Origin: Candidatus Woesearchaeota archaeon | GTDB taxonomy: Archaea > Nanobdellota > Nanobdellia > Woesearchaeales > UBA10216 | Assembly: GCA_016184345.1 (NCBI GenBank) | Contig: JACPCV010000004.1 | Location: 54,453-118,452, forward strand | Length of the DNA: 64,000 nt | Reading direction: 5' to 3' | Shown here: one piece after another, positions 8,718-62,649 of the stretch | How positions within the stretch are numbered: the first letter of the stretch is position 1 | How the letters are laid out: each line of letters begins with the position of its first letter | Program-made: the position numbers and the translations under genes | The notes under the pieces: generated by a model | Seen by the model: the letters and a program-made list of their open reading frames with translations, nothing else | Told to the model about the DNA's origin: nothing | Databases searched by the model: none

Positions 8718-8750
8718 TTTACTTGCAAGCCCCCAAACGCAGAAGCCATC

Positions 8751-9803: not shown

Positions 9804-9877
9804 GCAAAAATCCCCCGGACTAATGAAGCTGCGGCTATACGGGTAATATTAAAAGTTATCGCTATAATCCCGACAGC

Positions 9878-11538: not shown

Positions 11539-11552
11539 CCCGTAATCTTGTT

Positions 11553-12953: not shown

Positions 12954-13111
12954 CCCCCTTAATCAATAGCGCTAAAAAGCGGAGCTTTCCGACTATTTAA
13001 AGCTTTATTCACCTTGTACAACCGCGACAGGACAAAACAGTGCGCTGCTATTAAAACTTAATGTTACTAAAATAACAAAATTTAAATAGAAATGTTATTT
13101 CCTTTGATGCC

Positions 13112-13792
13112 ATGGTAACTGTAAGCGCTGTAGTCAAGAAGCTCGTTGATGAAAAGCCGCTGCTGCAGGAAGGGCTGAGGCAGGGAATAGTAAACTTTGC
13201 AGCCCTGGCTGAAAGGATAAAGCCGCAGGCAGAGCAGCAGCTTGGGAAGAGAATCAAAGAAGCGGCAATAGTCATGGCGCTGCGAAGGCACGGCGAGGCG
13301 CTGGAAGAAAGCGATGTCCGGCAAATCGGCTTTGAACCCCACACCCAGCTAACGCTTAAGACAAACCTCGCGTACTTCTCTGTAAAAAGGTCAGTGCAGC
13401 TGTTCAGGAAGCTGGAAGCGCTCTACAAGATATTTGACTACGAAGCCGGGGATACCTTCAACGTAATCCACGGCAACAACGAAGTCTCGATAATTGCCAA
13501 TGACAAGCATGAGAAACGAATAGCGGCAGCCCTGGAGGATGAGCGCATAACAACAAAGGAAAAGAACCTTGTTTCAATATCAATGAGCTTCGGCAGGGAT
13601 TTCCCGTACACGCCGGGAGCACTGTTCGCGGTAACAAGAAAACTGTATTGGGACAACGTAAACATATTTGAAATAGTCTCAGCTGCAACCGAACTCACGC
13701 TGATATTCCAGAAAAAGGACGCAATGAGGGCGTATGCGTCGCTGCAGGAATTGATTGACGAGAAGCGGCATACTGCTCACTCAGCGCCATAA
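13112..13792 (+). CDS. Hypothetical protein divergent from lysC, possibly an ACT-like regulatory protein
   Basis: 226-aa ORF transcribed divergently from the lysine operon across a 158-bp intergenic region with TTTAAATAG boxes. No strong motif recognised. Confidence 0.35.
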   Translation: MVTVSAVVKKLVDEKPLLQEGLRQGIVNFAALAERIKPQAEQQLGKRIKEAAIVMALRRHGEALEESDVRQIGFEPHTQLTLKTNLAYFSVKRSVQLFRKLEALYKIFDYEAGDTFNVIHGNNEVSIIANDKHEKRIAAALEDERITTKEKNLVSISMSFGRDFPYTPGALFAVTRKLYWDNVNIFEIVSAATELTLIFQKKDAMRAYASLQELIDEKRHTAHSAP

Positions 13793-14307
13793 TCAACCAG
13801 GCTGAAAACGTCGTAGCCCTGCAGCTTCTCCCTTCCCTTAAGGAACGAAAGCTCTATCAGGAAGGCAAAGCCTGCCACTTTTCCGCCAAGCTTCTCAACC
13901 AGGTCAGCAGCTGCCTTGCTGGTGCCCCCTGTCGCTATGAGGTCATCAACTATCAAAACCCTGTCGCCTTTTTTTATGGCATCCTCGTGAACCTCAAACG
14001 CGTCAGTGCTGTACTCTGTAGTGAACTCCTGCCGGATTTTTTTGTAAGGGAGCTTCCCTGGCTTCCTCAGGGGAACAAACGCAACGCCGAGCTCGTAAGC
14101 AAGCACAGAGCCAAAAATAAAGCCGCGGCTTTCGGCAGAAGCAACAACTGTTATGCCCCTGCCCCTAAAGCGGTCAAGAAACTGCAGGATGGCGTACCTG
14201 AACACCTTGGCATCTGACAGTAAGGGAGTGATGTCCCTGAACATTATCCCCTTCTTCGGGAAGTCAGGGACAGCACGGATTTTGGATTTGATGTCCATCG
14301 TTCTCAC
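13777..14307 (-). CDS. apt: Adenine phosphoribosyltransferase
   Basis: 176 aa, PRPP-binding motif VLIVDDLIATGGT. Confidence 0.9.
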   Translation of the reverse strand: MRTMDIKSKIRAVPDFPKKGIMFRDITPLLSDAKVFRYAILQFLDRFRGRGITVVASAESRGFIFGSVLAYELGVAFVPLRKPGKLPYKKIRQEFTTEYSTDAFEVHEDAIKKGDRVLIVDDLIATGGTSKAAADLVEKLGGKVAGFAFLIELSFLKGREKLQGYDVFSLVDYGAE

Positions 14308-15083
14308 AGCAGCGCGTCTTTCAATGCGGACTGGCAGCTGCAGGACGCCTTTCCGGGAATTTTTGGGATAATATCCAAAAGCAGTTTCTTCGTTTTCTCA
14401 ACGTTGCTTCTCAGGGTTGAAACCACAGCCTCTGCCGTGACTGCCTCGCCTTTCCAGCAGTCATAATCTGTAACCTGGGCAACAGCAGCGTAGCACATCT
14501 CAGCCTCCCTTGCCAGCACACACTCAGGCACCATAGTCATATTGATAGTATCACAGTTCCAGCTCCTGAAAAGGCTTGACTCTGCCAGGGTGGAAAAGCG
14601 GGGCCCTTCAATAACAACATTCGTGCCGACCTTGTGGTAAGGCAGCCCAAGCCTCTCAGCCGAAGCGCCAAGCAGCTTCCTGAGCTCTGGGCAGAAGGGC
14701 TCTGCCATTGAAATGTGGCAGACCTTATCCTTGTCGTAAAAAGTTGAAGCCCTCTTTGTCGTGCGGTCAATGAACTGGCCTGTGAAAACAAGGTCGCCGG
14801 GCCTGAACTCCTCTTTAAGCGAGCCAACAGCACAAGGCGCTATAATCCTGGAAACGCCAAGCTGCTTCATCGCCCAGACGTTAGCGCGGTAATTCACATT
14901 TGTAGGATTTAAAACGTGGCCCTTTCCGTGCCTAGGAATAACAATGACATCAACACCGCCTATTTTTCCGGCAATTACCGGCTGAGACGGCTTGCCGTAA
15001 GGGGTATCAACATCAACCGCCCTGGCTCCTGACAGAAAATCAGCATCATACATTCCTGTGCCGCCAATAACCCCGACCTTCAC
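14304..15083 (-). CDS. mtnP: 5'-methylthioadenosine / purine nucleoside phosphorylase
   Basis: 259 aa, MKVGVIGGTG N-terminus and PNP/MTAP family core (TPYGKPS, VIPRHG). Confidence 0.85.
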   Translation of the reverse strand: MKVGVIGGTGMYDADFLSGARAVDVDTPYGKPSQPVIAGKIGGVDVIVIPRHGKGHVLNPTNVNYRANVWAMKQLGVSRIIAPCAVGSLKEEFRPGDLVFTGQFIDRTTKRASTFYDKDKVCHISMAEPFCPELRKLLGASAERLGLPYHKVGTNVVIEGPRFSTLAESSLFRSWNCDTINMTMVPECVLAREAEMCYAAVAQVTDYDCWKGEAVTAEAVVSTLRSNVEKTKKLLLDIIPKIPGKASCSCQSALKDALL

Positions 15084-25278: not shown

Positions 25279-27969
25279 ATGAGAAAAGAGGCAGGAATTT
25301 CTTCAGCATCAGCTTCAACAATAGCCATCTTTAGCGCTTTAATCGCTTCATTACTGCTAGTAATAGCTGTTGCAGCCCAGGAAGAGGAGGAAGAGGTCAT
25401 GGTCGAGGAGGAGCTTGTTCCTGAGGAAGCAGCAGGGGTAACTCCTGACAGCCCAATCTACGTCTTTGACAAGATTGTTGACGACGTGCAGCTTGCTCTC
25501 GCTAAAGGAGAGGACAAGACAAAGAAAGCCCTTGAAATAAAGGAGGAAAGGATTGCAGAAGCAGCCATAATGGTTGACAAGAAAAAGCCAGATGCGGCAA
25601 AAGGCGCGCTTGAGCTCGCAGCAAAGGCAGCAGGGCAGGCGCAGAAGGAGCTTGACCCTGAGTTTGAAAAAGAGACAAACGAAAAAGTAAGGAGGGCGGC
25701 AAAGCTGCTCTCTGGCCTGCAGGAAAAGCTCCCTGACCAGGGCTGGGAGGGCGTAGAGAAAGCGCTTGACGCACAGCTCAGCGAGGAAGAAAAGGTAAGG
25801 GTAGCGCTTCTCGTGTCAAAAAGCAGGCTCACCTACTGCGATGCCATTGCACAGCAGGACTTTGACCTAATGAAGCAGGACGAACTCTGCCAGGTGGAAA
25901 AAGCCCCACAGTGGCTCAGAGAAAGGGTAGAAGGCGAGTTCAAGTCAAGGGAAGACAAAGCCAGGAACCTGATTATAGACACGGTAAGCTCCTGTGTAGT
26001 AGACCCTAAAAAGTGCGACTGCAGCCAGATACCTGTTGGGAAGCACAGCCAGTCATGCGAAGTCAAAAAGGCATTAGCGATAAGGTGCGAGTACGAAAAC
26101 GACGAGTCGGCATGCTCAGAGCTGGCTTCTGAGAAGCTTGAAGACTTCCTGCCCGAGTTCGTTGGCGAGGAGGGGAAGCAGACTGTGCTCTCGCACCTGC
26201 GCGAGAAGGAAGAGCAAATGTTTGAAAAGTTCAAGCCGCCGGAATGCGCAAATGCGCAAACGTTCCAGGAATGCTTCGCAGTCATGAAAGACCTCTACGG
26301 AACACCCATGCAATGCAAAGGCCTAAGCGATGACGAATGCATGGAATTCATTAAGCGAAACCCTCCAACCGAGAAGCCCAACCTGCCGCCGGAATGCAAT
26401 GAGGCAGGCGTCCAAAAGCCAGTTGAGTGCGCAGAGCTCATGTTCAGCAAATATGGAACACCCCCACAATGCGAAGGGCTTGACACAAGGGAATGCATGA
26501 AGCTGATGAGGCAGGAAAGGCCTGATGCGATGCAAAACGCAATGCCAAAGGAGTGCCAGGACGCAGGAGCGAAAGAGCCAAGGCAGTGCTTTGACATAAT
26601 GACTGCAAAATTCGGCTTCCCGCCAGAATGCGAAGGGCTGGATACTGATTCCTGCTTCAAGGAAATGATGAAGCGGGGACCCGGAGAAGGGCCGGAAGGC
26701 GGAACAAGGCAGGAAACTCCGGAGTGCCAGGAGAAGGGAGTAAAAGGCAAGGACTGCTTCCTGCTAATGACTGAGCTCTATGGGGGAATGCCACAGGAAT
26801 GCGAAGGGCTGAGCGCTGACGAATGCTTTGAGAAAGTGACAAAGGAAGGCCCGCCAAAAGGAGCACCTCCGGTAAACTGCGTCGGGCTAAGCCCTGAAGA
26901 GTGCAGGGCAAAGATCCAGGAGCAGCACGGGCTCCCGCCGGAATGCGCGCAGAATCCTGACCAGTGCCAGAACGCGTTTGAAGGCAGGGGAGTGCCGGGA
27001 GGAATACCTGCAGAATGCGCAGGGCTTGAGCCAGAGCAGTGCGAGCTTGTAATGATGCAGAAGTTCGGGCCGCCGGAATGCAAAGAGGCAACAAAGGACG
27101 AGTGCGAGGCAATAATGAAGGAAAAATACGGAGAAGGCGGCTTTGGAGGAGGACCCGGTCCCGGCGGTCCGGGCCAAGGCGGTGAAGGCGGCTTCGGATT
27201 TGGAGGAACAGGCGGAGGAGGCTTTGTAAATGAATGCGAAGGCCTGCCAAGGGAGGAGTGCGAGAACAAGATGTTTGAAAAGTTTGCCCCGCCGGAATGC
27301 AGCGGCTTATCAAGGGAAGAATGCGGAAGGATGACCAGGGGGAGGTTTGAGCGCGAGAGGCAGGAACAAGATAAAAACCGCGGTGAATGCGAAGGCCTAT
27401 CAGAAGAAGAATGCAGAGGCAAGTTCTTTGAAGGCAGGGGAGAGGGAGACGCAAGAGGCGAGGGCGAAAGGCGGGAAGGAGGGGATGCAGGAGCGGCTGG
27501 ACCACAACGCACATTTAGGGAGCCGCTTGGGGAGCCTATAAGGGGAGCACCTTCTGGGTGTGAAGGACTCTCACCAGAAGAATGCGGCTCAAGAATGGAA
27601 CAGGCAGCGAAGGAAAGGTTCATTCCGCAAGGAGAGCCGATAAGGCGAGAACCGCAACAGCAGCCATACCCGGCAAGGGAATATCCTGCAGGCTCATACC
27701 CCGAACGGGGAGGAGAATACCCGAGAGGTTACCAGCAGCCCAGCGGCGGAGAAGGCAGCTACCCAAGCAGTGAAGGTTCTTACCCTGGCAGCGGGAGCGG
27801 CACCAGCGATGGCGGAAGCGAAAGCAGTGGAGGATTTGGAGGAGACTCTGGAAGCCCAGGCAGAAGTGACAGTGGCAGCGGGGGAGGCGGCTCAGGCGGC
27901 GGAGAAGGCACAGCAGCAGCGATAACAGGCCAGATAATAAAAGCAATCAAGTGGGTAGGCGGGAGATAA
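25279..27969 (+). CDS. Large secreted low-complexity protein with >12 tandem Cys-containing repeats (PPEC-EGL-x3-EC-x2-M-x3-G), acidic N-terminus and Gly/Ser-rich C-terminus
   Basis: 896 aa, N-terminal hydrophobic anchor or signal. Repeat unit of about 22-30 aa (e.g. GTPPQCEGLDTRECMKLMRQERP, GFPPECEGLDTDSCFKEMMKRGP). C-terminal G/S/Y-rich tail. Antisense ORFs in this region are compositional artefacts. Confidence 0.7.
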   Translation: MRKEAGISSASASTIAIFSALIASLLLVIAVAAQEEEEEVMVEEELVPEEAAGVTPDSPIYVFDKIVDDVQLALAKGEDKTKKALEIKEERIAEAAIMVDKKKPDAAKGALELAAKAAGQAQKELDPEFEKETNEKVRRAAKLLSGLQEKLPDQGWEGVEKALDAQLSEEEKVRVALLVSKSRLTYCDAIAQQDFDLMKQDELCQVEKAPQWLRERVEGEFKSREDKARNLIIDTVSSCVVDPKKCDCSQIPVGKHSQSCEVKKALAIRCEYENDESACSELASEKLEDFLPEFVGEEGKQTVLSHLREKEEQMFEKFKPPECANAQTFQECFAVMKDLYGTPMQCKGLSDDECMEFIKRNPPTEKPNLPPECNEAGVQKPVECAELMFSKYGTPPQCEGLDTRECMKLMRQERPDAMQNAMPKECQDAGAKEPRQCFDIMTAKFGFPPECEGLDTDSCFKEMMKRGPGEGPEGGTRQETPECQEKGVKGKDCFLLMTELYGGMPQECEGLSADECFEKVTKEGPPKGAPPVNCVGLSPEECRAKIQEQHGLPPECAQNPDQCQNAFEGRGVPGGIPAECAGLEPEQCELVMMQKFGPPECKEATKDECEAIMKEKYGEGGFGGGPGPGGPGQGGEGGFGFGGTGGGGFVNECEGLPREECENKMFEKFAPPECSGLSREECGRMTRGRFERERQEQDKNRGECEGLSEEECRGKFFEGRGEGDARGEGERREGGDAGAAGPQRTFREPLGEPIRGAPSGCEGLSPEECGSRMEQAAKERFIPQGEPIRREPQQQPYPAREYPAGSYPERGGEYPRGYQQPSGGEGSYPSSEGSYPGSGSGTSDGGSESSGGFGGDSGSPGRSDSGSGGGGSGGGEGTAAAITGQIIKAIKWVGGR

Positions 27970-42059: not shown

Positions 42060-42171
42060 CGCCGGGAGCGGGAACTTCACCTCCCTAGGAAAGGATTTGA
42101 ACCCGCAGGGCCTCTGGGGAAGCCCACTCGTTTCTGAAACGAGCGCGTCTACCTGATTTCGCCATCCCGGC
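42060..42171 (-). tRNA. tRNA-Leu (anticodon CAG), class II, with a ~22-nt intron in the T-loop (59/60)
   Basis: Acceptor GCCGGGA/TCCCGGC, 3-bp D-stem GCG/CGC, anticodon arm CTCGT-TTCAGAA-ACGAG, long variable arm. T-stem GCGGG...CCCGC is interrupted after TTCAAA by TCCTTTCCTAGGGAGGTGAAGT. Confidence 0.6.
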
Positions 42172-42562
42172 GTGAAATAAGCACTGCAAATCAAGATTCA
42201 AATGCCTTTCGTGCAGATTTCCGGAAAACTTTCGAATTATTCAGAAGAGTTTTGTTTAATGCCGTAAATTTTTCACAAATTCGTTAATTTCCCGAAAAGT
42301 TTCCGGTTTGCCCGGATTATTTCGCCCAGGATTTTAGAAAAGTTTATTAATAACCTCACCCATACGGTAGATAAGACCTCTGGGGAAGTTTAAGCGCACG
42401 CCGGTTTCGCCTTTCTTTTTTATTTTTGATCTATTTTTCTCATAGCTGAACAAGTAGTTCACAAAAGTTTATTAAGAAGTTCCACTTAATAACAAATAGA
42501 TTGTTGTGCACAGTTTAGGCGTATACCAATTACGCCATTTTCTTTTTATTTTTTAAACTTAA

Positions 42563-45915: not shown

Positions 45916-46479
45916 TCAGCGCTTAAACTGGGCAAGGTCAATAACTGCCAGAAAATCCCTTCCCCCATTGGCATATGATACTTCCAGGCTAGGGTGCTTA
46001 AAAGTCGTGAAGCCACCCCTTCCCGGATTCTCCCTGATTTCCTTTTCATAATCCCACTCTTTTGCATTCGGGTTTGAAATGTGCATCAAGGCATGAGAGG
46101 AGTCAGCGGGATGGTAATGCCGTATGACCGTCAGTGCATTTTTAACATCTTCCCCGCCATGCACAACAAGGTTTGCAAGTGATTCAGAGAAAATTCCTAT
46201 AAACAACCAGTACTGCATTCCAAAAAATTGTTTTGTGAATAAGCGGTAATAAAGCTGAAGAGAATGAGCAAGGCCGGCCACCTTGTCTAGACTCACAACC
46301 TGCTCATACTGGGTAAGCCTATAGGGAAGCGTAACATTCTCCCATCTATTAGGAGTGAAGTGCTCGTAATTACCAAAGCTTGCAGCGCCATCCCAACCGA
46401 TGAGCGCCAACATCCCATCCAAACCCAAATCCGGCCGAAATGTCATAAAAAGAAATGCCTTACTTCCTAGCCTTCTCAA
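45916..46479 (-). CDS. Hypothetical protein, occupies the position after rpsL where rps7 would be expected
   Basis: 187-aa ORF overlapping the rps12 stop by ~20 nt. No ribosomal S7 features. Confidence 0.35.
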
Positions 46480-46903
46480 GCTTGCCGTGAAGCAGAGCGT
46501 TAAGCGACTGGTCGTTGACCTTGATGACCTTCCACCTCACGCCTGGAATGTCACCGTAAGACCTGCCCTTCCTTCCCCCAATGCACTCAACCATTACCTC
46601 ATCGTGCTCGTCAATAAGCTTTGAAGCGCCATCGCCAGGGCAAAATGCTGTCACCTGCCTGCCATTCTTGATCAATTGAACTCGAACGCACTTCCTCATC
46701 GCAGAGTTAGGCTGCTTTGCCTCAAACTGCACCTTCTCAAGAACAATGCCCTTAGCCTGCCATGAGCCCTCAAGAGGGTCAGACTTAACCCTCAGGTTCA
46801 GAACCCTTGCCACGTAAGAGTGCTTCGCCCACCTCGCCCTGGCCCTGCGCCTAGCAAGCGAGCCTCCTGCATTCAAACCACGAGCCTTCTTCGCCATATC
46901 CAC
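46460..46903 (-). CDS. rpsL: 30S ribosomal protein S12 (uS12)
   Basis: 147 aa, [31 protein letters not shown] signature. Confidence 0.9.
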
Positions 46904-46941
46904 AAGAGCATTAAGGGGTGGTTTATAAAGATTACTAACGC

Positions 46942-46975
46942 TTGAGCTGTAAGGTTAGCGGGTGGTAAGCAAGGT
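46942..46975 (+). repeat. Island boundary repeat A (ttgagctgtaaggttagcgggtggtaagcaaggt), outer left
   Basis: About 31/34 identical to repeat B. Its reverse complement matches repeat D (52753-52785). Confidence 0.7.
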
Positions 46976-47240
46976 ATTGTTCAGGGTTTGTGTTAAGTAA
47001 CAGATGTTAAGGAAACGTCTGAAAAACATTTATAAAGGTCTATTATTGAGCTTTTTCTATGGGTAGGGCACCAAGCCATAAAACAGAGAGGTATGGTGCA
47101 AAGGTAAGCCATAAACAGGTTGTTTGCTCAAAACAGTTCCCAGAATGCCCTGAAACTCCGAATTACAACGATTGCCACACTTGTCCCTTGTGGGGAACGG
47201 GCATTAGTTCAACATATAAGCAAAAATGGTTAAACGAAAA

Positions 47241-47274
47241 TTGAGCTGTAAGGTTAGCGTTTGGTAAGCAAAAG
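47241..47274 (+). repeat. Island boundary repeat B (ttgagctgtaaggttagcgtttggtaagcaaaag), inner left
   Basis: Its reverse complement matches repeat C (52332-52362), about 21/27. Confidence 0.7.
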
Positions 47275-47306
47275 CTGTTTATAAAACTAGCTTTGATGAG
47301 GTAAAA

Positions 47307-47897
47307 ATGCTTATTCCGCCTTATCCAATAATCCCGATGCAATTTCAATATTTGGAAAAGATTGATAAAATTGCTCAGGATTTGCAAGAGAAGGCAAAAC
47401 AGCACGGTCACAAAGATAAATTTATTGATGGGAACGAGTTAAGAGCCAATAAAATCGGTAAATTAGGCGAACTCGGTTTTAGGGACTTTCTTGATTTATA
47501 TTCAATCAAGTATGAATATGATGAAAGTTTGGATGACCTTGATGAAAAGGATTTTTTCTTATGGGAAGCAGAGAAAAAAGCAAAGTTAGATTTAAAGACT
47601 CAACGTATAAGGGAAAATCAACGACCTATACCTATTTGGAATTGTGAGGTTAATGATAAGCAAAAAGATAAAAAAATGGATTACTATGCTTTTACAAAGT
47701 ACAATGAGGATATTCAGGAACTTCATTTTGTTGGATTTATTGGTTATGAACGTTTCTGGAAAATAGCTCAAAAAAGGAAAGTTGGAGAAACGTTTTTTGG
47801 TGGAGAACCAGTAAAAGGCGACAATTGGTGTGTTCAAATATCGGATTTAGAAACGCCTGAAGAATTTTTAAAACAATTTAAAAAGAAACAACAATAA
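47307..47897 (+). CDS. Hypothetical protein, convergent with the methyltransferase; possible PD-(D/E)xK nuclease
   Basis: 196 aa, AT-rich. Segment ...GFRDFLDLY...DFFLWEAEKK offers a possible D...E-x-K arrangement, weakly supported. Abuts the methyltransferase stop with no gap. Confidence 0.3.
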   Translation: MLIPPYPIIPMQFQYLEKIDKIAQDLQEKAKQHGHKDKFIDGNELRANKIGKLGELGFRDFLDLYSIKYEYDESLDDLDEKDFFLWEAEKKAKLDLKTQRIRENQRPIPIWNCEVNDKQKDKKMDYYAFTKYNEDIQELHFVGFIGYERFWKIAQKRKVGETFFGGEPVKGDNWCVQISDLETPEEFLKQFKKKQQ

Positions 47898-49448
47898 TTA
47901 AAAGTGTCCTATTTTCTTTTGACTTTCCCTCTTTGTTGATAAATCTTTAATTCCTTGCGCTTCTTTGAATGGCATATAGCTACTCGGTAATCTTAATCTC
48001 GTATCATCTAAAAATTCTTTAATGGTAATTATTTGTATTTTTGGATATTCTTCTTCCATCATCCCAATTTTAAAGAAGCCTTCCTTATTCGCTTCTTCTT
48101 TCATTGGCTTTGTTGGGTCTTCCAAAGTTATGAGAACCCCTCCAATAGCTTTTTCCCTTTTCATATCACCATTTAAAGCAGAAATATCCTTCCTTTGAAC
48201 CCCGCCGCTCTTAACCTGAATAAGAATTTTCTCAAAGTCCTTTTCAGAAGTTCTTATGATAACATACCCGTCTATTCCTTCATCGGCACTTTTCTTTTTT
48301 GAAGGGATTGCATTAACTAAACTTAAAGCCCAATATTGAAATTCAAACCTGTTTTTTAAAGCGAGTTCTTTTGCACCCCCAACGTCTTTCGGAATACCAT
48401 CAAGACTAATCTTTATGCCTTTTTCAAATAAGTGAAATTGTTTTTCTAACCTGCTTTTAATAAGAGTAATGGCTAATGTTGTAATGTCAATTCCGACCCA
48501 TTTTCTATCTAAATGTTCAGCAACAGAAACCGTAGTTCCACAACCGCAAAAAGGGTCAAGAATAACATCGCCCTTATTTGAACTTACACGGATAATTCGT
48601 TCCAAAAGTGCCTCTGGTTTTTGAGTGGGATAACCTAAAACTTCTTGGTCTCTTTTCAAAGTCATCATATCAATACCGTGCAAAGGCTTTACATCACCCC
48701 ACCAATCCCTCAAAGGATAGCCTTTTGCCTCATCTAAATATTGCCTATACCTCCCCCCACTTCCATCAGGTTGTAATTGAAAAAGCCTTCCTTTTTCGTC
48801 TATGTGCGTAAAATACATTTTTATATAATTATCATCATAAGGGGTAAATTGTATGTTAAAAGTGTATTCGCTACTCTTCGTATAAAAGAAAATTATGTCG
48901 TGCTTTCTTGAATATTTCTTAGCTTTCGGGCTTTCCCTTCCACTATAACACCATGCGATTTCATTCCTAAAATTGTTTTTATCAAATATGCTGTCTAAAA
49001 TTATTTTTAGATAATGGCTTGCGGTTGGGTCGCAATGTAAGTAAATAGACCCTGTTTTTTTCAAAACCCTATGCAGTTCTATTAATCTTATTGTCATCAT
49101 TACTAAATAAGCCATCATATCGTTTTCGCCTAAAATCTTCTTAAATCCTTGAATTAAATCAGAAATCTCAGTGTTTATTTTTGTTTTAGAAGGTCTTGTG
49201 CCTATCAGTTCTTCAAAAGTTCTTTCTGCCTCTTCCGTCCAATGCCATGTATCATCAAAAGCTTTCAGTTGTGCACCATTTTTAACAAGCCCTTCTTTAA
49301 ACAGAATATTGTATGCTCTATTGGAATTAAATGGCGGGTCAAGATAAATCAGGTCAATGCATTCATCTGAAAATCTATCTCTTAATACTTCAAGATTATC
49401 GCCAAAAAATAAGGTTCTATTTTCCATTAAGCTTATTTTTTGCACCAT
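47898..49448 (-). CDS. Beta-class DNA amino-methyltransferase fused to a C-terminal Mrr-like PD-(D/E)xK nuclease domain
   Basis: 516 aa. DPPFNSNRAYN (motif IV) then DPFCGCGTT (motif I). C-terminal ~180 aa carry ADEGIDGYVI and ILIQVKSG, resembling the Mrr catalytic GIDG / Q-x-K motifs. Confidence 0.7.
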   Translation of the reverse strand: MVQKISLMENRTLFFGDNLEVLRDRFSDECIDLIYLDPPFNSNRAYNILFKEGLVKNGAQLKAFDDTWHWTEEAERTFEELIGTRPSKTKINTEISDLIQGFKKILGENDMMAYLVMMTIRLIELHRVLKKTGSIYLHCDPTASHYLKIILDSIFDKNNFRNEIAWCYSGRESPKAKKYSRKHDIIFFYTKSSEYTFNIQFTPYDDNYIKMYFTHIDEKGRLFQLQPDGSGGRYRQYLDEAKGYPLRDWWGDVKPLHGIDMMTLKRDQEVLGYPTQKPEALLERIIRVSSNKGDVILDPFCGCGTTVSVAEHLDRKWVGIDITTLAITLIKSRLEKQFHLFEKGIKISLDGIPKDVGGAKELALKNRFEFQYWALSLVNAIPSKKKSADEGIDGYVIIRTSEKDFEKILIQVKSGGVQRKDISALNGDMKREKAIGGVLITLEDPTKPMKEEANKEGFFKIGMMEEEYPKIQIITIKEFLDDTRLRLPSSYMPFKEAQGIKDLSTKRESQKKIGHF

Positions 49449-49468
49449 CTTTAAAAACTTTCTTTTCG

Positions 49469-49663
49469 CTACTTTGTTTCTATTAAATCTACTCTTGTTT
49501 TATCGTTTTTGCTTATGACTATTTTTCCTTTTTTTATCTCGGCTTCTAAGTCTTGTCCTTCTTTCCAACCTATTTTATCAATAAGAAAATTAGGGATTAC
49601 TATCCAATGTTTTTGATATGCTTTTCCCTTGTATTCTCGGCTTTTTTGCTTTAATAGTCGCAT
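49469..49663 (-). CDS. AbrB/SpoVT-like small DNA-binding protein
   Basis: 64 aa, HWIVIPNFLIDKIGWKEGQDLEAEIKKGKIVISK. Divergent from the transposase gene across a motif-rich 117-bp spacer. Confidence 0.4.
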   Translation of the reverse strand: MRLLKQKSREYKGKAYQKHWIVIPNFLIDKIGWKEGQDLEAEIKKGKIVISKNDKTRVDLIETK

Positions 49664-49667
49664 AAGA

Positions 49668-49775
49668 AGTCTTAGATACCTACCCCTTTATAAGCATTTC
49701 GGTATCTAAACATATAGTTCCGATTAACTCTCTTTAGGTATCGAAATGTTTATATACTTGCTTAGATACCTAATA
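49668..49775. promoter_or_regulatory. Four copies of an AGATACC/GGTATCT motif in the divergent intergenic spacer
   Basis: cttagatacct at 49671-49681 and 49761-49771 (direct). Inverted ggtatct at 49701-49707 and ggtatcg near 49737-49743. Confidence 0.45.
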
Positions 49776-49779
49776 CGCT

Positions 49780-50661
49780 ATGGAAATGCAAACAAAATGC
49801 GTCTTTTGCAAAGCCACCAACTATATCAAGTGGGGTACTCGCAAAACAGAGAACAGGGGTAGTATTCAGAGGTATAAATGCCTGTCTTGTAAGAAGCGAT
49901 TTACTAATGATGATGGTTTTTACAGGATGCGAAATAGCGAAGAGAAGATTACAGCAGCTATTGACCTTTACTTTTCTAACTTGTCCAGTAGGAAGGTTAG
50001 GAACCACTTTAGAAGGCATTGGAACCATAATGCCAGTCATATGAGCATACTTGATTGGTGCCGAAGATACACCCTTAAAATCCAAAAATACGTGGCTACA
50101 ATGCAGCCACAGCTAAGTGGGCAGTTCTATATGGACGAAACCGAAATAGACAGAGGCAGGGGAAATGATGTTTTTTGGTGTAACGTGGACTGGGGAACAC
50201 GATTCATTAACTCAACAATGTATAGTCCTCACAATCAAACTGTAGAGGATGCTGCTACTTTCCTTAAAGCTACTGTTGCCAAAGGACTGCCAAAATACAT
50301 TCAGACAGATGCGGGTGTTTTTTACCCACAGGCATTTCAAAAGACCTTCTACTCAAGTAAAGCACAAGGTTTGACAGTAGAACACCGCATCCAGAACTAC
50401 CACAAAACAGGCAAGCACAACGTAAGGATTGAAACCGTCTTTATGAAGGTCAAAGACCGAGTGGACGATTTTAGAGGGCTTAAAGCCCTATGGAGTGCTC
50501 CGATACTAATGCAGGGCATAATATTACAGCATAACTTCATAGAAGCACACACAACAACAGGAAAAGTGCCTTCAGAATTAGCAGGTCTTAAACTGGAGGC
50601 AGGACAAAACAGATGGCTTGGAATGATAAAGTTGGCTTCGTCGGGAACAAAAGGTTTATAA
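49780..50661 (+). mobile_element. DDE transposase with N-terminal zinc ribbon, IS6-like
   Basis: 293 aa. CVFCKATN...YKCLSCKK zinc finger, then FYMDETEIDRGRG...NVDWGTRFI, resembling the DETY(V/I)K and D..R core of IS6-family enzymes. No matching terminal inverted repeats found. Confidence 0.5.
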
Positions 50662-50705
50662 ATAACGTTATATTAACGTTAAATAAACGTTATGAGGACG
50701 TTAAG

Positions 50706-50882
50706 ATGTATGTTCCAAAAGGTAAGCGGAAATTTTTTATAACTGTAAGAGAAGTCAGAGCAGATAACGTTTTAGGGGATTCAGAGTCGTTTTCGGTTTA
50801 TGATTCAGAAGTAAGAATGACCAGAAGAGAGCTTGTAGATTTTTTGACTCAAAAGATTAACGAGACGGATAAAGATGTTTGA
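50706..50882 (+). CDS. Small hypothetical protein, first gene of the unknown island operon
   Basis: The internal ATG (MYVPKGKRKFFITVREV...) has a GAGGA RBS 8 nt upstream. The ORF-track start at 50613 extends into the transposase gene. Confidence 0.25.
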   Translation: MYVPKGKRKFFITVREVRADNVLGDSESFSVYDSEVRMTRRELVDFLTQKINETDKDV

Positions 50883-51519
50883 ACTAATAAAATTCGTAGG
50901 CGTAATTTGGGATTACTACGATAACACTAACACACTTATAAGAATTTTGAAAACAATTTGGCGATACGTGAATTTCTGGAAATGGTTTATTCAAAATCCA
51001 AAAATTAGAATGAAATATGGAAGATTAATTAATGCAAAAGGAAACTACAATGATAGCTTATTAAAAATAAAATCAAAACTAAAATCTGGCGATTATGAAT
51101 TTAGTGACGGCGTAATAGAGCATGATAATAAATTACTTTTTGAATTTAAGGATACCAGATTAGGTTATCAAATAAAATTTTATCCATTAAAAGAAAATTC
51201 TCATCATATCAAAATAAGCACAATATTCTACACACTCTTTCCTTTTCGTGAATTAACTACCATTAATGATATTAAGAAGGATTTTTATCGTCTTTGTGAA
51301 TTAATAAGAACATTAATTAAGATGCAAGGAAACGAAAACGAAACTATATTTTTAGAAGTTGGAGTAAAAAATAAAAATTCCATCAGGTCAAGTTTTGATT
51401 ATAAAGATGTTCACGTAACATTCTTAGATGAAAAAATCCAGATTGATAATACGTATGGTTCAGAATTTGACCAGATAATTCTTCTTATTTTAACAAGATG
51501 GCTGATAGACCGTAACTAA
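50875..51519 (+). CDS. Hypothetical 214-aa protein (AT-rich, island)
   Basis: Overlaps the upstream small ORF by 8 nt, so operon-like. No recognisable motif. Confidence 0.4.
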   Translation: MFELIKFVGVIWDYYDNTNTLIRILKTIWRYVNFWKWFIQNPKIRMKYGRLINAKGNYNDSLLKIKSKLKSGDYEFSDGVIEHDNKLLFEFKDTRLGYQIKFYPLKENSHHIKISTIFYTLFPFRELTTINDIKKDFYRLCELIRTLIKMQGNENETIFLEVGVKNKNSIRSSFDYKDVHVTFLDEKIQIDNTYGSEFDQIILLILTRWLIDRN

Positions 51520-52286
51520 TGAGAATAATCTTCGTAACCTTGAGATACTTCGGGTAATTCAGTTTGAACTTCCGATTTTTGAACATAGTCAGAATAAGGC
51601 AGGAAAATTGTTGTAAGTTCTTTAAGCAACAAGATTTCTTCATCTGAGTTCTTCAGAATAATGTGTTTTAACAAAGAACCAGATTTAAAGATGGCAACTT
51701 TAATCCTTTTTCCTATTTTTGATAAGACCTCAACACCTATCCCCTCTCTTTCTGAAGGGGCTGTTATAAACTTGAGGTCTTCATCAATTTCTTCCCCATA
51801 TTGACCTTGATATTTTATGTTACCTTCTTCCCTGACACCGTTAAACCAGATATTATCAAATTCGCCCTTTCTTTTAGCTTCAAGGACTAATTGCGGTTTA
51901 AAACTAACTGGGCGAATCTTTTTACCTGATTCATATAAAATCTTACTTAAAATCTCAATACCGAATAAACTAGCTTTTTCTTTTGATTCAAATAAAATAA
52001 CATCAATATCAGGAAATATTGTAAAATTTAATTCGTCCTTGAGAAAAATGGGCTTTTCTTTTAAAATTGGCATATAATTATCCTCAATCTCATAATCATA
52101 GTCCATATACCGCCTTTTAACAAGAATTGTTCCACTAATAAACTTTCTTTTTTCTGAAATAAGAGGTTTGCCAGCAATTCTCACTTCTTTAATCCTATCA
52201 GAATCAATTGATTTATAGTTAAAACCGATTAATTTCTTCTCGGCTTCTTTCTTAGTTATTTTAAGACATTTTGTAATAAACGCCAT
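51516..52286 (-). CDS. Hypothetical 256-aa protein (AT-rich, island)
   Basis: Convergent with the 50875 gene, 3' ends overlap by 4 nt. No recognisable motif. Confidence 0.4.
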   Translation of the reverse strand: MAFITKCLKITKKEAEKKLIGFNYKSIDSDRIKEVRIAGKPLISEKRKFISGTILVKRRYMDYDYEIEDNYMPILKEKPIFLKDELNFTIFPDIDVILFESKEKASLFGIEILSKILYESGKKIRPVSFKPQLVLEAKRKGEFDNIWFNGVREEGNIKYQGQYGEEIDEDLKFITAPSEREGIGVEVLSKIGKRIKVAIFKSGSLLKHIILKNSDEEILLLKELTTIFLPYSDYVQKSEVQTELPEVSQGYEDYSH

Positions 52287-52331
52287 ATTCCATAACTTAA
52301 AAATATGGGTATATAAACCTTTATCACTTGT

Positions 52332-52362
52332 CAGTTTACCAAACGTTTACTTTATAGCCAAC
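52332..52362 (-). repeat. Island boundary repeat C (inverted copy of B), inner right
   Basis: Reverse complement gttggctataaagtaaacgtttggtaaactg vs B gctgtaaggttagcgtttggtaagca. Confidence 0.65.
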
Positions 52363-52364
52363 AA

Positions 52365-52697
52365 TCATTTGCCTTTTAGTAGTTTATTTACTGTTGGTAG
52401 GCTTTTTTTAACTTCATCCAACAACTTAAGTTGAACCTCAAGTGGCAGGACTGGAGCGATTATGGTTTCAATAACTACCTTAAGCCGCTTAACATAGAAC
52501 TCTACACCCTCCTTTTTCCCAGCAGCAACTAACGCTTCAGACAGGTCATAAACTGCTTTTTGAATCCGCTGAAACTCTGGCTTAAGACTTTGCTCTACTA
52601 CTCCCCGAGCAACTTCCTCTTCAGGCACGCCCAGCATAGCAGCCAGCTCCTTACGCTTCTGCTTATAAAAATCCGTTTGCTCCTTATCCCACTCCAT
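52365..52697 (-). CDS. Hypothetical 110-aa helical protein between inner and outer right repeats
   Basis: Normal GC. Lies between repeats C and D. Confidence 0.4.
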   Translation of the reverse strand: MEWDKEQTDFYKQKRKELAAMLGVPEEEVARGVVEQSLKPEFQRIQKAVYDLSEALVAAGKKEGVEFYVKRLKVVIETIIAPVLPLEVQLKLLDEVKKSLPTVNKLLKGK

Positions 52698-52752
52698 AAA
52701 GAGTCAAAAGAACAAGCTAAAGATAAAAAGCTTCCCATCCCTAACCAAGAAG

Positions 52753-52785
52753 CTACCACCCGTTTACTTTACAGCCCACTAACGC
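52753..52785 (-). repeat. Island boundary repeat D (inverted copy of A), outer right
   Basis: Reverse complement gcgttagtgggctgtaaagtaaacgggtggtag vs A gagctgtaaggttagcgggtggtaag. Both share the gggtgg variant. Confidence 0.65.
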
Positions 52786-52842
52786 TTGGCATTTGTTCCT
52801 TATTGGTATCCCTTCTATGCTAGCGTCAGATAAACTTCAGAA

Positions 52843-53361
52843 CTACACAACCTTTACTTCTTTTATCGGGAAATATCTCTGGATTATGGATTCCATGTTC
52901 CTGAGGTTCCTGCCGGAACGGCCGATGAGGTAGCCGCGGCTTTCTGACGACTCCGGGGTTATTGTGATTATGCCGTCTGAAACTGAAATGTCCCTTGCCT
53001 TGGAGGGCTGGATGAGGCCGGCCACGAACTGCACAAGGTCGTCGGAGAACTCTGCTATCTTGACTTTCCTTTTCAGGGCTTCCTCAATGCGCTTCACGTT
53101 TGCGCCTCCTTTCCCGACAGCAAGGCCGTACTGCGCTGGCTCAACCACGAAAACGAGAAGGCTGTTCTGGTCAACAAAGCAGTCCTTCAGCCTGGCTTTT
53201 GTAGCTGCCTCAAAGAAGGACATCAGCTTCATCAGCGTATTGTCATACTTTATTTTCTGCATCTTATCATGAGAATCAGCGGCAGCAGCCATCATCAACG
53301 ACCATTCACGGATATTTATCTCAAAACGCCCACTACAGATATGGAGAACGGCTTCTTGCAC
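52843..53361 (-). CDS. nusA: Transcription elongation/termination factor NusA (archaeal, KH domains)
   Basis: GLAVGKGGANVKRIE and LIGRSGRNLRNME KH motifs. The likely start is the internal Met at ~53262 (MQKIKYD...), which avoids overlap with L30e. Confidence 0.75.
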   Translation of the reverse strand: MQEAVLHICSGRFEINIREWSLMMAAAADSHDKMQKIKYDNTLMKLMSFFEAATKARLKDCFVDQNSLLVFVVEPAQYGLAVGKGGANVKRIEEALKRKVKIAEFSDDLVQFVAGLIQPSKARDISVSDGIITITPESSESRGYLIGRSGRNLRNMESIIQRYFPIKEVKVV

Positions 53362-53586: not shown

Positions 53587-56289
53587 TCACGCCTTAGCTT
53601 CCTGCCTTTTTGAAACCAGCTTCGGGAGGCCAGTTCCAACTGGCACGGGCTGGTTCAGCATTACATTCTCAACAACTGAAGTCAGGTTGTCAACCTCTCC
53701 GTAAAGGCTTGCATTTATTATGTGCTTTATGGGAGTCTCAAAACTGGCACGGGCAAGGACGCTTGCCTTGTCCCTTACAACACCGTACCTTGTTATGCCC
53801 TTTACCTTGCCGTCAGCGCACATGACATCGGCAACAAGCATCAAATGACGGATGTCAACGTTAAGGCCCTGGGTCTCAATGACCTTGTAAACCTCATCAA
53901 TCACTGCCTGCCTTGCAGCCTCTATGCCAAGGGTTTCCTCAATCTCAAAAACATCATTAGTTGTTGTCCTTGTCTCGTCAACGAACGGCAGCTGGAGCAC
54001 CTTCTTCAGGTTTGAGCCGAACGTGAGTATGACATACTCATTGTTCTTCCTGACAGGAAGCACCTGAGACACCCCCCTGACTCCCCTGACAAAGGTCTCC
54101 TTGGCCTTCTCCTTGAGCTTGAATATGTCGCTCACCCCGCCTTCCTTTGCCTTTACCTTGAGGATAAGGGTATCGCTTTTTATGTCAACGTGAACGCCCT
54201 TGACGCCAACCTTGAGCGCCTTGGCAAGCGTGACCTCGTTAATGCCAAGCTCCTTCATCTTGCCTGTATCAAGCTGCACCTCAATCCTGTTGTCAGCAAC
54301 ATTGATTGAGAACTCCAGGGCTATGTCCTTGAGCTTGGTCTCCTTAACCATCAGCGCAACCTTCTTGATGTCCTGGCCCTCGGAGTAGGGCTTCTTGAGG
54401 TAAATCTCCATCATCGGGGTAGTCAGGTTTTTCCTTCCATCCAGGATTTCAATAATCCTCGGCAGTCCCATGGTGACGTTCATCTCTGAAACGCCTGCGA
54501 AGTGGAACGTGTCCAGAGTGTTGTGGGTTACGATGCCGTCAAAGGTTGTGAAGGTCTCTGTATCTTCCACAGAGAAGTCATAGACGTGTACCGCAGTTGG
54601 TTTCACATAATCCAGCGCCACTATTTCGTCCCACACAACATCAGCATCCAACATCCTTTTAATTACGCCCAGTTCTTCGCTGATGTCAGCACTCTTTTTT
54701 GCTGCAAGCGCCGAGAAATTTTCGGCATACCTTGCAAGCGCTGCCCTTCCCACCTTCTGCTTCCTTGTCAGCTTGGTTACCAGCCTGCTTGGAAGCCCAA
54801 GCTTCTGGCCAAGCGCTGCAAACAGCTGCCCGTAGCCGGGAATCATGTCAATTACGTCATAACTTTTTCCCCTCACCTCAGCCGCTTCCAGCTTTTCAGC
54901 CAGCTTAACCAGCGCGGCCCTCTTTTCAGGAATCATTGAGCCAATCTTTTCCAAAAACTTTTTGCCGTACCTGTAGGAAATGGAAAGCCAGCACTGGCCC
55001 TTCTTATCCGAATTCTTTACAGAAAATATTCCCAGCCGCGTGAGCAGCAAAGAAATTCCGTCAATAAGCTCCTCAGAATTGGAGCTGGCCCTTATCACAT
55101 TTCTAATGACGCTTACATTTCCGTCGCCGTCAAAATACGCCTGCAGCAGGCTGGCGATGAAATCCTCATTGGCATCGTAAGCGAATGCGGGAATTTTCTT
55201 GTTGTCTGATTTCTTGCCGCAGACCAGCCTAAGAAGGTCTGCAAGCACTGTTGAGTGCATCCATAAGGTGGTGCTTGGCCCGAATTCGCCCATTTCGCGC
55301 TTGACGTTATAGCCGACTTTGTACTTGCCTGCGAACTGCACAGCCATTGCCAAATACTCTTCTGACACGTTGGAAATGCCTACAGAGTTCTCGACGTGAA
55401 CGCCTTCCGCGAGGTAAGCGCCAACAAGCCAGCCAAACGAGCTGTCAAGGGGCATGACTTCATGTATCTGAGCTCTGCCGTGGTTCTGGTAAGGGTAAAC
55501 AAAGCCTTCCTGGACTAAAACCTGGTTAGCTGAATTGGCGTAATTATTTATCTGCTCGTACTTCAAGGGAATTGTGGCTGCGCTGTGCAGCCTGCTGTTG
55601 CTCTCAATGGCTTTTTTAAGCTCGCTGCCATAGACATACCTTTCTTTTGGCAGGAACTCTTCAATTGCAAGCAAGTCTTTCGATCCGGCAATGGCAAGCT
55701 TCCTAAGCGCTGGAATCCTGGCGCCAACTTTTAAGCTGGAGCCTGCAACAGGCTTAACCTTGTTGTCGTCTCTTATGACAAAGGAGTGGTATGGCGTGGC
55801 TACAATCTGCCTTCCGGAAGCGGTTGTTATCCTCAACAGCTTGGAAGGAGCCGTGTGCCTGCTGACCGCAGTAATCCTGCGCCACACTATTTTCTCATCC
55901 TTGCCTAAGCTGGGCACAAACACATTGCCAGCAAGCTGGCAGACCGATGTTTGCTCGTGATTAGCCAGCTCCTTGAAGCCGTAAAACGCCATGGCGGCAT
56001 CAACGAACCTTCCAATCTCCACCGCTTTAACGCCCTGCTCGACCTTAATAATGACCTTTTCCGCATAGTCGACTGACATCTGCGTTCCTGGCTCGCCTAT
56101 GGACTCCGCAGCAACCAGGCCGACAGACTCGCCTGCCTCAACCTTCATTCCAGAGTACTCGTCAGCAATGCTCTTGGCAATCTCCTTTGCCCTTGAGTCT
56201 GAAACCTTTTCAGGCATTGCCGCAACTACCTCTGCATAGAGCCCTGGCGGAAGGGTGCCCTGAAGTTCCTTCAAAATGCTGGTTGCCAT
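53587..56289 (-). CDS. rpoA2: DNA-directed RNA polymerase subunit A'' interrupted by an intein
   Basis: 900 aa, against ~380 aa for a typical A''. Exteins: N-terminal 71 aa ending GEPGTQM; C-terminal 310 aa starting TLDTFHFAGVSEMN. Confidence 0.9.
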   Translation of the reverse strand: MATSILKELQGTLPPGLYAEVVAAMPEKVSDSRAKEIAKSIADEYSGMKVEAGESVGLVAAESIGEPGTQMSVDYAEKVIIKVEQGVKAVEIGRFVDAAMAFYGFKELANHEQTSVCQLAGNVFVPSLGKDEKIVWRRITAVSRHTAPSKLLRITTASGRQIVATPYHSFVIRDDNKVKPVAGSSLKVGARIPALRKLAIAGSKDLLAIEEFLPKERYVYGSELKKAIESNSRLHSAATIPLKYEQINNYANSANQVLVQEGFVYPYQNHGRAQIHEVMPLDSSFGWLVGAYLAEGVHVENSVGISNVSEEYLAMAVQFAGKYKVGYNVKREMGEFGPSTTLWMHSTVLADLLRLVCGKKSDNKKIPAFAYDANEDFIASLLQAYFDGDGNVSVIRNVIRASSNSEELIDGISLLLTRLGIFSVKNSDKKGQCWLSISYRYGKKFLEKIGSMIPEKRAALVKLAEKLEAAEVRGKSYDVIDMIPGYGQLFAALGQKLGLPSRLVTKLTRKQKVGRAALARYAENFSALAAKKSADISEELGVIKRMLDADVVWDEIVALDYVKPTAVHVYDFSVEDTETFTTFDGIVTHNTLDTFHFAGVSEMNVTMGLPRIIEILDGRKNLTTPMMEIYLKKPYSEGQDIKKVALMVKETKLKDIALEFSINVADNRIEVQLDTGKMKELGINEVTLAKALKVGVKGVHVDIKSDTLILKVKAKEGGVSDIFKLKEKAKETFVRGVRGVSQVLPVRKNNEYVILTFGSNLKKVLQLPFVDETRTTTNDVFEIEETLGIEAARQAVIDEVYKVIETQGLNVDIRHLMLVADVMCADGKVKGITRYGVVRDKASVLARASFETPIKHIINASLYGEVDNLTSVVENVMLNQPVPVGTGLPKLVSKRQEAKA
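54520..56076 (-). other. Intein (519 aa) with LAGLIDADG homing-endonuclease domain inside rpoA''
   Basis: Starts with Ser (SVDYAEKVIIKV, block A) and has block B GRQIVATPYHSF. Two LAGLIDADG motifs (GWLVGAYLAEG, LLQAYFDGDG). Ends VTHN followed by Thr +1. Confidence 0.8.
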
Positions 56290-62515: not shown

Positions 62516-62649
62516 CGGGCCGGACGGGACTTCCCTACCTTATCCTTTTTGGCCAAGCTTTTTGCTCGCCACAGCGAGGAAAAAGGTTGTTTGAACCCGC
62601 GACCCACGGATTAAAAGTCCGTTGCGCTGCCAGGCTGCGCTACCGGCCC
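62516..62649 (-). tRNA. tRNA-Lys (anticodon UUU) with a 60-nt intron in the T-loop between positions 59/60
   Basis: GGGCCGG-TA-GCGC-AGCCTGGCA-GCGC-A-ACGGA-CTTTTAA-TCCGT-GGGTC-GCGGG-TTCAAA[60-nt insert]T-CCCGT-CCGGCCC-G. The mature sequence is 74 nt with all stems paired. CC follows the discriminator. Confidence 0.7.

Follow-up and report, generated by a model that had tools for sequence, protein, structure and literature searches.

Two probable nested transposons of a Woesearchaeota IS6-like family, with an AbrB-like partner gene and interchangeable cargo, between nusA and rpsL

We analysed a 64-kb stretch of DNA from a Candidatus Woesearchaeota archaeon (contig JACPCV010000004.1 of assembly GCA_016184345.1, positions 54,453 to 118,452 of the forward strand; hereafter, the window), in which nusA and rpsL are separated by an AT-rich island of 5.9 kb. 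Judged from its sequence and that of related loci, the island very probably consists of two DDE transposons of a single Woesearchaeota-specific IS6-like family, one nested in the other. The inner element contains the transposase gene (tnp) and, divergent from it, a small AbrB-like gene (abrB), together with a DNA methyltransferase gene and further open reading frames (ORFs). Comparison contigs and genome contexts are designated by L numbers.

The base composition and the borders of the island set it apart from the host DNA. GC content is 0.29-0.39 in the island and ~0.50 on either side (0.347 for the element overall and 0.503 for the flanks), and four copies of a ~25-nt motif, named A to D from left to right and with outer tips at 46943, 47242, 52361 and 52778, enclose 5.8 kb (Table 1). 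A 22-nt degenerate pattern derived from the four copies (GCTGTAARGTWARCGKKTGGTA, with up to three mismatches allowed) matched the 64 kb exactly four times, at 46946(+), 47245(+), 52358(-) and 52775(-); 0.01 matches were expected, and four were reached in none of 100 shuffles. A and B are direct repeats (94% identity across 31 nt), A is 84% complementary to D across 25 nt (21/25 identical to its reverse complement) and B matches the reverse complement of C at 83% across 23 nt (19/25 identical). The initial annotation had described an AT-rich insert of ~5.9 kb bordered by an outer A/D and an inner B/C pair of inverted repeats; its coordinates, sequences and AT-rich composition were confirmed, as was the nested layout on formal alignment (83-94%).

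The outer pair is directly bracketed by a perfect 8-bp repeat, CTAACGCT, whose left copy lies 5 nt from the rpsL TATA box (TTTATAAA, 46923-46930), and an in-silico empty target site would read ...GGAACAAATGCCAAGCGTTAGTAATCTTTATAAACC... Two independent Logan contigs (L039 and L040) span the island at 100% identity, and it is therefore not a mis-assembly. Seven public contigs match the window at 100% identity and all stop within 50074-51110, from the 3' half of tnp through ORF214; two others cross this segment. This suggests a second genomic copy of the conserved tnp segment or heterogeneity in the population. An Rfam scan of the window gave no match inside the island, and a scan for sigma-70 promoters and terminators found no enrichment, the sigma-70 model being unsuited to an archaeon.

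Table 1. Coordinates of the island, its host flanks and features of comparison loci (window positions unless a locus is named; TIR, terminal inverted repeat; TSD, duplication of the target site; aa, amino acids)
Feature	Coordinates	Strand	Remarks
rpsL (ribosomal protein S12), host flank	46460..46897 (or to 46903)	-	ORF list; Pfam Ribosom_S12_S23 on exact protein on record
TSD, left copy, CTAACGCT	46935..46942	.	directly outside A; identical to right copy
Outer left TIR (repeat A), TGAGCTGTAAGGTTAGCGGGTGGTAAGC	46943..46970	+	
ORF61, Cys-rich, 61 aa, left arm of outer element	47059..47244	+	doubtful gene
Inner left TIR (repeat B), TGAGCTGTAAGGTTAGCGTTTGGTAAGC	47242..47269	+	
ORF196, probable PD-(D/E)XK nuclease	47307..47897	+	conserved E55, D82, D95-x-K97
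N4/N6 DNA methyltransferase with C-terminal Mrr-like / NA-iREase1 domain, 516 aa	47898..49448	-	
AbrB/MazE-like small DNA-binding protein, 64 aa	49469..49663	-	heads operon divergent from tnp
Divergent promoter/operator region	49664..49779	.	four TTAGRTAYC repeats bracketing two TATA boxes
TTAGRTAYC repeats	49672-80, 49701-09 (inverted), 49734-42, 49762-70		
TATA box for abrB	49687-93		
TATA box for tnp	49749-56		
IS6-like DDE transposase, 293 aa	49780..50661	+	N-terminal CxxC...CxxC zinc ribbon
ORF89, small ORF after tnp	50613..50882	+	called as gene on Logan contigs
ORF214, cargo	50875..51519	+	
ORF256, RdgC-like (toroidal DNA-binding) protein	51516..52286	-	structural match
Inner right TIR (repeat C), degenerate tip, TTGGCTATAAAGTAAACGTTTGGTAAAC	52334..52361	-	
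ORF110, right arm of outer element	52365..52697	-	
Outer right TIR (repeat D), TGGGCTGTAAAGTAAACGGGTGGTAGCT	52751..52778	-	
TSD, right copy, CTAACGCT	52779..52786	.	directly outside D
nusA (archaeal KH-domain NusA), host flank	52843..53295 (or to 53361)	-	Pfam KH_2 + KH_5
Junction insert of L001 (89% NusA identity)			HEPN + nucleotidyltransferase pair
Junction insert of L002 (78% NusA identity)	L002 10530-15850		5.3 kb; AbiEi-family gene + unknown 769-, 321- and 248-aa ORFs
Junction insert of L017	L017 2240-3030		~0.9 kb
Junction insert of L026 (identical RpsL protein)	L026 1-405		gene NUDIX-like by eye only
TSD of L027 element, GGAATTAG			
TSD of L028 element, CGGAAGTG			
TSD of L029 element, TGAAAACC			
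TSD of L030 inner element, CTATTCCT			
TSD of L051 element, TGGTTTCT			
TSD of L052 element, CCGAACAG			

The same borders recur around homologous transposases. We found 696 (~700) homologs of the window transposase at 65-89% identity, with Woesearchaeota as the origin of all those whose source was named, and took the genomic context of six, one locus (L030) contributing two elements. All seven readable elements (L027, L028, L029, L030 inner, L030 outer, L051 and L052) are bounded at both ends by the same inverted TIR. These units are AT-rich relative to their flanks and 2.7-6.8 kb long (2685-6781 bp), with 5-11 genes each. The family TIR is imperfect and ~25 nt long, of the form TGAGCTGT...ACG..., with a 5'-TG(A/G)GCTGT tip and ACG at positions 16-18. 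Scanning metagenome contigs for the TIR pattern gave six further loci; the TIR adjoins an abrB homolog in three of them, and tnp as well in L034 and L035, while viral contigs gave 0 matches. L038 holds a 141-bp miniature element (MITE), with repeats 117 bp apart, no gene and the TSD GTTTTGTT. Together with A/D and B/C of the window, the seven elements and L038 make up ten TIR pairs, and perfect 8-bp TSDs enclose eight of them (chance ~1.5e-5 each). An 8-bp target duplication and ~25-nt TIRs are thus properties of the family. Because such a duplication surrounds A/D and the same TIR occurs with 8-bp TSDs at loci with homologous transposases, we read the repeats of the island as the true TIRs of a transposon family. 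In all autonomous copies examined, 3-7 further genes lie inside the element's own TIRs, and no transposase-only copy was found among nine autonomous or formerly autonomous elements.

These loci also bear on a different explanation, in which the repeats bind a transcription factor close to promoters and the island arrived by another route. Each repeat does precede an inward-facing gene (ORF61, ORF196, ORF256 and ORF110) by 36-90 nt, in the same orientation to that gene in all four cases, and AT-rich TATA-like boxes lie in the interval before the start codons. However, both TIR-adjacent genes of L028 face outward, the closely spaced repeats of the L038 MITE enclose no gene, and the 8-bp duplications in eight of the ten pairs directly abut the repeats. 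The candidate regulator motif of the window, TTAGRTAYC, is moreover a different sequence that is confined to the abrB–tnp spacer. We consider it extremely improbable that the repeats are regulatory sites rather than transposon ends, although the TIRs may serve secondarily as inward promoters.

The transposase scored 27.4 bits against Pfam DDE_Tnp_IS240 (PF13610; gathering threshold 27, with homologs at 29-57 bits) and 67.6 bits against NCBIfam IS6 (NF033587; E 1.2e-18, cutoff 125) over model positions 1-201 of 202, in line with the initial annotation of the gene as IS6-like. Residues D119, D177 and E218 and the four cysteines of the zinc ribbon do not vary among 16 homologs, and E--F---K-R, the signature of archaeal IS6-like transposases (PMC6807381), is present as IETVFMKVKDR. 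A lookup of the exact protein found it not to be on record. Transposase homology and the 8-bp TSD place the family with the archaeal IS6-like group. Two other assignments were rejected. Some NCBI records name homologs 'IS1 family transposase', but the IS1 InsAB-type model (NF033558) scored too low, at 29.6 bits against a cutoff of 100, and was weaker than the IS6 match. The IS6/IS26 group sensu stricto has E-DH---K and a 14-bp TIR starting with GG (Harmer & Hall 2019), whereas the window transposase has the archaeal signature and a zinc ribbon, and the TIR tip is TG. The IS1/IS1595 Zn domain (NF050000) matched the transposase N-terminus at 25.6 bits (cutoff 28), and the IS1595 DDE model gave no match at E <= 10.

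Four repeats could mark one element or two, and the initial annotation had offered both a transposon with multi-copy ends and two successive insertions. A single transposon with two transposase-binding sites per end (A+B and C+D), in the manner of Tn7 or Mu, would fit the topology, A and B being direct copies on the left and C and D their inverted counterparts on the right. It would also agree with the missing TSD of B/C, since internal binding sites would have none, and the repeats are mosaics in which A and B share left-type bases (AAGGTTAGCG) and C and D right-type bases (AAAGTAAACG). TIR positions 19-22, however, differ between elements and are the same at the left and right ends in eight of the ten pairs, with one mismatch in L028 and in L030 outer. 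In the window these positions read GGTG in A and D and TTTG in B and C (within CGGGTGG and CGTTTGG, respectively), which pairs A with D and B with C and therefore indicates two elements. Multi-site ends are further disfavoured because other complete elements have exactly one site per end (L027, L028, L029, L051 and L052). ORFs also lie between the sites of the window, which are spaced at 299 and 417 bp. B with ~20 subterminal nt (47242-47284) matches the genuine left end of the L027 element at 95% identity, and the transposases of L027 and the window are 89% identical. At L030 the four sites belong to two tnp genes: a 3067-bp inner element lies inside a 6781-bp outer element (7653-14433), the outer one having its own, inverted tnp copy, no abrB partner and no TSD. 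Nesting is proven there, since the inner pair has a TSD of its own. We therefore regard multi-site ends as very unlikely and retain two nested elements, for which both the outer TSD and positions 19-22 speak.

Two further observations concern these ends and loci. Over the ten pairs, the hexamers at TIR positions 19-24 (GGTGGT, TTTGGT, TCACCT, AGACCT and AGTGGT) are element-specific and matched between left and right, and possibly form a specificity code evolving together with the transposase. The L030 locus adjoins a reverse-transcriptase gene and a tyrosine integrase.

Several points weigh against reading the island as two nested IS6-like transposons. B/C has no TSD: its flanks are ACGAAAAT and CAATCATT, and 8-mers, offsets and the inverted orientation were checked by eye. 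The tip of C (TTGGCTAT) is degenerate, with three mismatches in 8 nt, and the nested history is therefore less proven here than for the inner element of L030. The transposase falls far under the NCBIfam IS6 cutoff and barely reaches that of Pfam, and the TIR tip is TG, where IS6 typically has GG (PMC7986276); an IS6 mechanism for the window elements is therefore an extrapolation. The island is present as a single copy in the window, and no empty-site allele of the same strain was found, all 15 or more contigs with island genes being occupied.

The following history would account for these features. The outer element (46943-52778, with GGGTGG-type ends) inserted into the nusA–rpsL spacer at a point 5 nt upstream of the TATA box of rpsL and duplicated the 8-bp target. 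Of its own DNA it now retains ~0.7 kb (left arm ~0.3 kb, right arm ~0.4 kb, with ORF61 and ORF110), and it has no transposase. The inner element (47242-52361, with GTTTGG-type ends) appears to be autonomous and a close sibling of the L027 element. The outer TSD is compatible with a composite that may have moved as a unit or with an inner element that entered a resident outer one. Later adjacent deletion or decay could have removed the inner TSD and mutated the tip of C, and would also account for the lost outer transposase. Movement would presumably proceed by IS6-type DDE strand transfer, either as copy-in through a cointegrate and host recombination or as cut-and-paste.

The NusA sequence assigns the window to Woesearchaeota (DPANN), and we compared the junction with that of related genomes. 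In 18 of 23, nusA and rpsL are 0-180 bp apart: L003 (65% NusA identity) has a 46-bp gap, which represents the empty site, and the genes are likewise adjacent in 17 more distant relatives. The window nusA is called as 150 aa on Logan contigs, and its L001 counterpart is 89% identical. An rpsL promoter block (AATCTTTATAAACC) is kept in L001, L002 and L017, and homology to close relatives ends at the left edge of the island. Each close relative has a different accessory insert between the two genes (Table 1), made up of toxin-antitoxin, defence-related or other accessory genes, and neither the cargo nor the repeat motif of the window occurs in the inserts of L001, L002, L017 and L026. The comparison that the initial annotation had proposed thus found the island absent or replaced by unrelated cargo, and no relative with the same genes at this locus outside repeat borders. 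In L001 the HEPN/nucleotidyltransferase pair lies between two copies of the nusA 3' end (8514-8583 and 9741-9810), a duplication of 70 nt at 89% identity, and a search for boundary repeats in the L002 and L017 inserts gave none that was convincing. The nusA–rpsL spacer is a lineage-specific hotspot for accessory genes that has been entered by more than one insertion mechanism.

Such a hotspot raises the question of whether an integrase or cassette system delivers DNA to the junction, with the TIR elements as mere passengers. The different cargo in L001, L002, L017 and L026 would agree with site-specific delivery, and the L001 duplication of the nusA 3' end is an att-like signature. In the window, however, the non-host segment is bounded exactly by TIR and TSD, only a 56-nt lineage-specific spacer lies outside A/D, with no integrase and no nusA duplication, and the same transposon family occupies unrelated sites elsewhere. 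An integrase/att reading of the island itself was rejected for lack of an integrase and because its repeats have inverted rather than direct orientation. We find site-specific delivery very unlikely and continue to favour transposition into the spacer. Beside the island, between rpsL and a SpoIIM-like membrane gene, is a 176-aa ORF without family (45916-46446, -) and with host-like GC content; rpsL and the SpoIIM-like gene are adjacent in L003 and L026, which makes the ORF a second, smaller insert of variable occurrence at this place.

An all-against-all comparison of the elements found only two genes in common, tnp and a 54-65-aa AbrB/MazE-like gene, and sharing at the nucleotide level was limited to abrB–tnp and the left terminus. 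The window protein scored 24 bits against Pfam MazE_antitoxin (cutoff 24.7) and matched the NCBIfam AbrB domain weakly. An abrB homolog stands beside tnp in the window, L027, L028, L029, L030 inner, L034, L035, L051 and L052; L037 has one too, with tnp beyond the contig end. The family core is therefore a zinc-ribbon DDE transposase with a divergent AbrB-like gene, both of which the initial annotation had listed as cargo; the methyltransferase–Mrr fusion in the same list did prove to be cargo.

The spacer between the two core genes contains operator-like repeats. All five matches to TTAGRTAYC in the 64-kb window fall inside its 100 bp, with 0.83 expected, and its arrangement of four ~10-nt motifs and two TATA boxes is kept in six elements, the motif co-varying with the AbrB variant. 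It reads TTAGATACC in the window, L029 and L034, and GGGTACCC in L027 and L028, the AbrB-like proteins of the latter two being 97% identical to each other. The AbrB-like protein may thus bind the four TTAGRTAYC repeats and repress both tnp and the cargo operon that it heads.

Genes between the TIRs other than abrB–tnp are interchangeable passengers, mostly a DNA methyltransferase and a small partner ORF. Downstream of abrB, the slot is occupied by a methyltransferase, drawn from at least two unrelated classes, in the window, L027, L029, L035, L037 and L051, but by an NYN-domain protein in L028 and by small unknown ORFs in L030 and L052. In L029 a ThaI-family restriction enzyme lies beside the methyltransferase. 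The window methyltransferase matches Pfam N6_N4_Mtase (155 bits), NA-iREase1 (49.7) and Mrr_cat (40.4) and the PADLOC Type II methyltransferase model (206 bits); the best match of its Mrr-like domain is a model named 'inactive restriction endonuclease'. PADLOC applied to the cargo returned methyltransferase models only. Of the undescribed mobile defence module put forward in the initial annotation, mobility stands, and 'defence' holds only for the part that resembles a restriction-modification (R-M) system.

Two of the ORFs that had been left without a family gained probable folds; ORF61, ORF89, ORF214 and ORF110 had no family in Pfam, NCBIfam or PADLOC. For ORF196, the AlphaFold2 model (predicted local distance difference test, pLDDT, 80) gave top Foldseek hits that were mostly PD-(D/E)XK nucleases, all of them weak (E >= 0.009). 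Its homologs form two families and lie beside already complete type III and MmeI-type (type IIG) R-M loci, so it is possibly an accessory nuclease; the model points to a probable accessory or restriction nuclease, with partnership to the methyltransferase not proven. The ORF256 model (pLDDT 77) matched the PDB structures of RdgC from E. coli and Pseudomonas (2owl/2owy; E 5e-6 to 1.5e-5, probability 1.00, template modelling score 0.49-0.53), which supports a predicted RdgC-like fold; there was no Pfam sequence match, and six homologs were found in 5.8 billion proteins. Bacterial RdgC is a ring-shaped DNA-binding protein that modulates RecA, and an RdgC-like gene was unexpected as cargo of a DPANN transposon. 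ORF61 was not called as a gene on Logan contigs. ORF110 has only three homologs among 1.8 billion representatives, and the closest (52% identity; L053 3221-3646 / L054 1785-2210) lies among densely packed small genes of unknown function, together with a PemK toxin and a serine resolvase; this setting resembles a plasmid or virus and has no TIR motif.

Three other parts of the window deserve mention. A second AT-rich patch at 1737-4239 (GC 0.33-0.40) encodes two methyltransferases, one an N6_N4 DNA methyltransferase and the other a D12-class adenine methyltransferase, along with an unknown ORF of 186 aa; neither the TIR motif nor a transposase was found in it, and it is possibly a further R-M island or an element that has decayed. 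The gene for RNA polymerase subunit A'' (900 aa; 53587-56289, -) contains an intein with a LAGLIDADG homing-endonuclease domain, according to precomputed Pfam matches of an identical Logan gene. An 896-aa ORF with a DUF5667 domain (25279-27969, +) lies in a stretch of very strong purine skew (AT skew up to 0.36 and GC skew up to 0.29). As for RNA genes, ARAGORN called only tRNA-Leu(CAG) in the window (42082-42172), and Rfam adds a tRNA match at 62592-62649 (-; 30.1 bits, gathering score 29) that ARAGORN did not call.

Gene exchange is poorly understood in DPANN archaea, whose genomes are tiny and which depend on hosts. The family described here is not a new mobility mechanism but a variant of ordinary DDE transposition. 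What is previously undescribed is a family of DPANN unit transposons that combine an IS6-like transposase and an AbrB-like regulator with exchangeable R-M or toxin cargo; we found no prior description of such a Woesearchaeota or DPANN family in the searchable literature, which did not cover ISfinder and is not proof of absence. Its readable ends, TSD and candidate regulatory circuit provide a testable model of how defence genes move in Woesearchaeota, and a possible basis for genetic tools, which this group lacks. For insertion sequence (IS) biology, an IS6-like transposase that serves a unit transposon with internal cargo is a boundary case for IS6 classification. More broadly, tnp and an AbrB repressor might form a DPANN-wide chassis for interchangeable R-M, toxin and DNA-binding cassettes, with AbrB co-regulating tnp and cargo and TIR positions 19-24 acting as a co-evolving address. 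This is a tentative proposal that could well be right but that we do not quite favour; if true, such elements would be a principal vehicle of defence-gene exchange among genome-reduced Woesearchaeota, and the boundary between IS6-type insertion sequence and unit transposon would be blurred.

Compared with known systems, the family is closest to IS6 in its DDE domain, archaeal signature and 8-bp TSD (PMC7986276, PMC6807381). IS6 TIRs are short (15-20 bp), with a GG tip and cTGTt and caaa motifs (PMC7986276), and archaeal members often have longer TIRs without the GG tip (Harmer & Hall 2019, PMC6807381). Like IS6, the window family has CTGT near the tip, within GCTGT, and its TIRs are longer than the bacterial 14 bp, as in archaeal members; there is no caaa, and GG is offset by 2 nt and present in some ends only. 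Nesting and miniature derivatives also have parallels, in the IS-within-IS precedent IS15 (PMC7986276) and in reported MITE derivatives of IS6 (PMC7986276, PMC6807381). The family differs in its size of 2.7-6.8 kb, against 0.7-0.9 kb (up to ~1.7 kb) with tnp as the sole gene in IS6, and in carrying cargo inside its own TIRs, for which IS6 provides one passenger example, ISDsp3 (PMC7986276). IS6 cargo normally moves in pseudo-compound transposons with two direct IS copies (PMC7986276); we saw no cointegrate or direct-repeat IS pair, the two tnp copies of L030 being inverted. An AbrB-like partner has not been described for IS6 (PMC7986276). The N-terminal zinc ribbon and the DPANN host further distinguish the window family.

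Passenger-carrying members of IS1595 offer a second comparison. Transposases of IS1595 are single-ORF DDE enzymes with an N-terminal zinc-binding domain, and its passenger-gene subgroups (ISNha5 and ISNwi1+) and 'transporter IS' (tIS) have genes inside their TIRs, sizes of several kilobases and 8-bp duplications. Compared by description, the window family appears to resemble these subgroups functionally, whereas its catalytic domain matches IS6 (67.6 bits) over IS1 (29.6 bits); to our knowledge, an AbrB-like partner is not a described feature of IS1595.

Finally, the family recalls the mobile R-M units of bacteria, in which R-M genes likewise travel with a transposase and create target duplications (Furuta et al. 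2010, PMC2853133; Takahashi et al. 2011, PMC3031569), and in which the R-M module may stabilise its carrier through post-segregational killing (PMC2853133, PMC3031569). Those units are mostly IS-flanked composites or use other insertion modes, whereas the window family is a unit transposon that carries unrelated methyltransferases (N6_N4-Mrr, D12 class and ThaI-paired) in one and the same slot after abrB.

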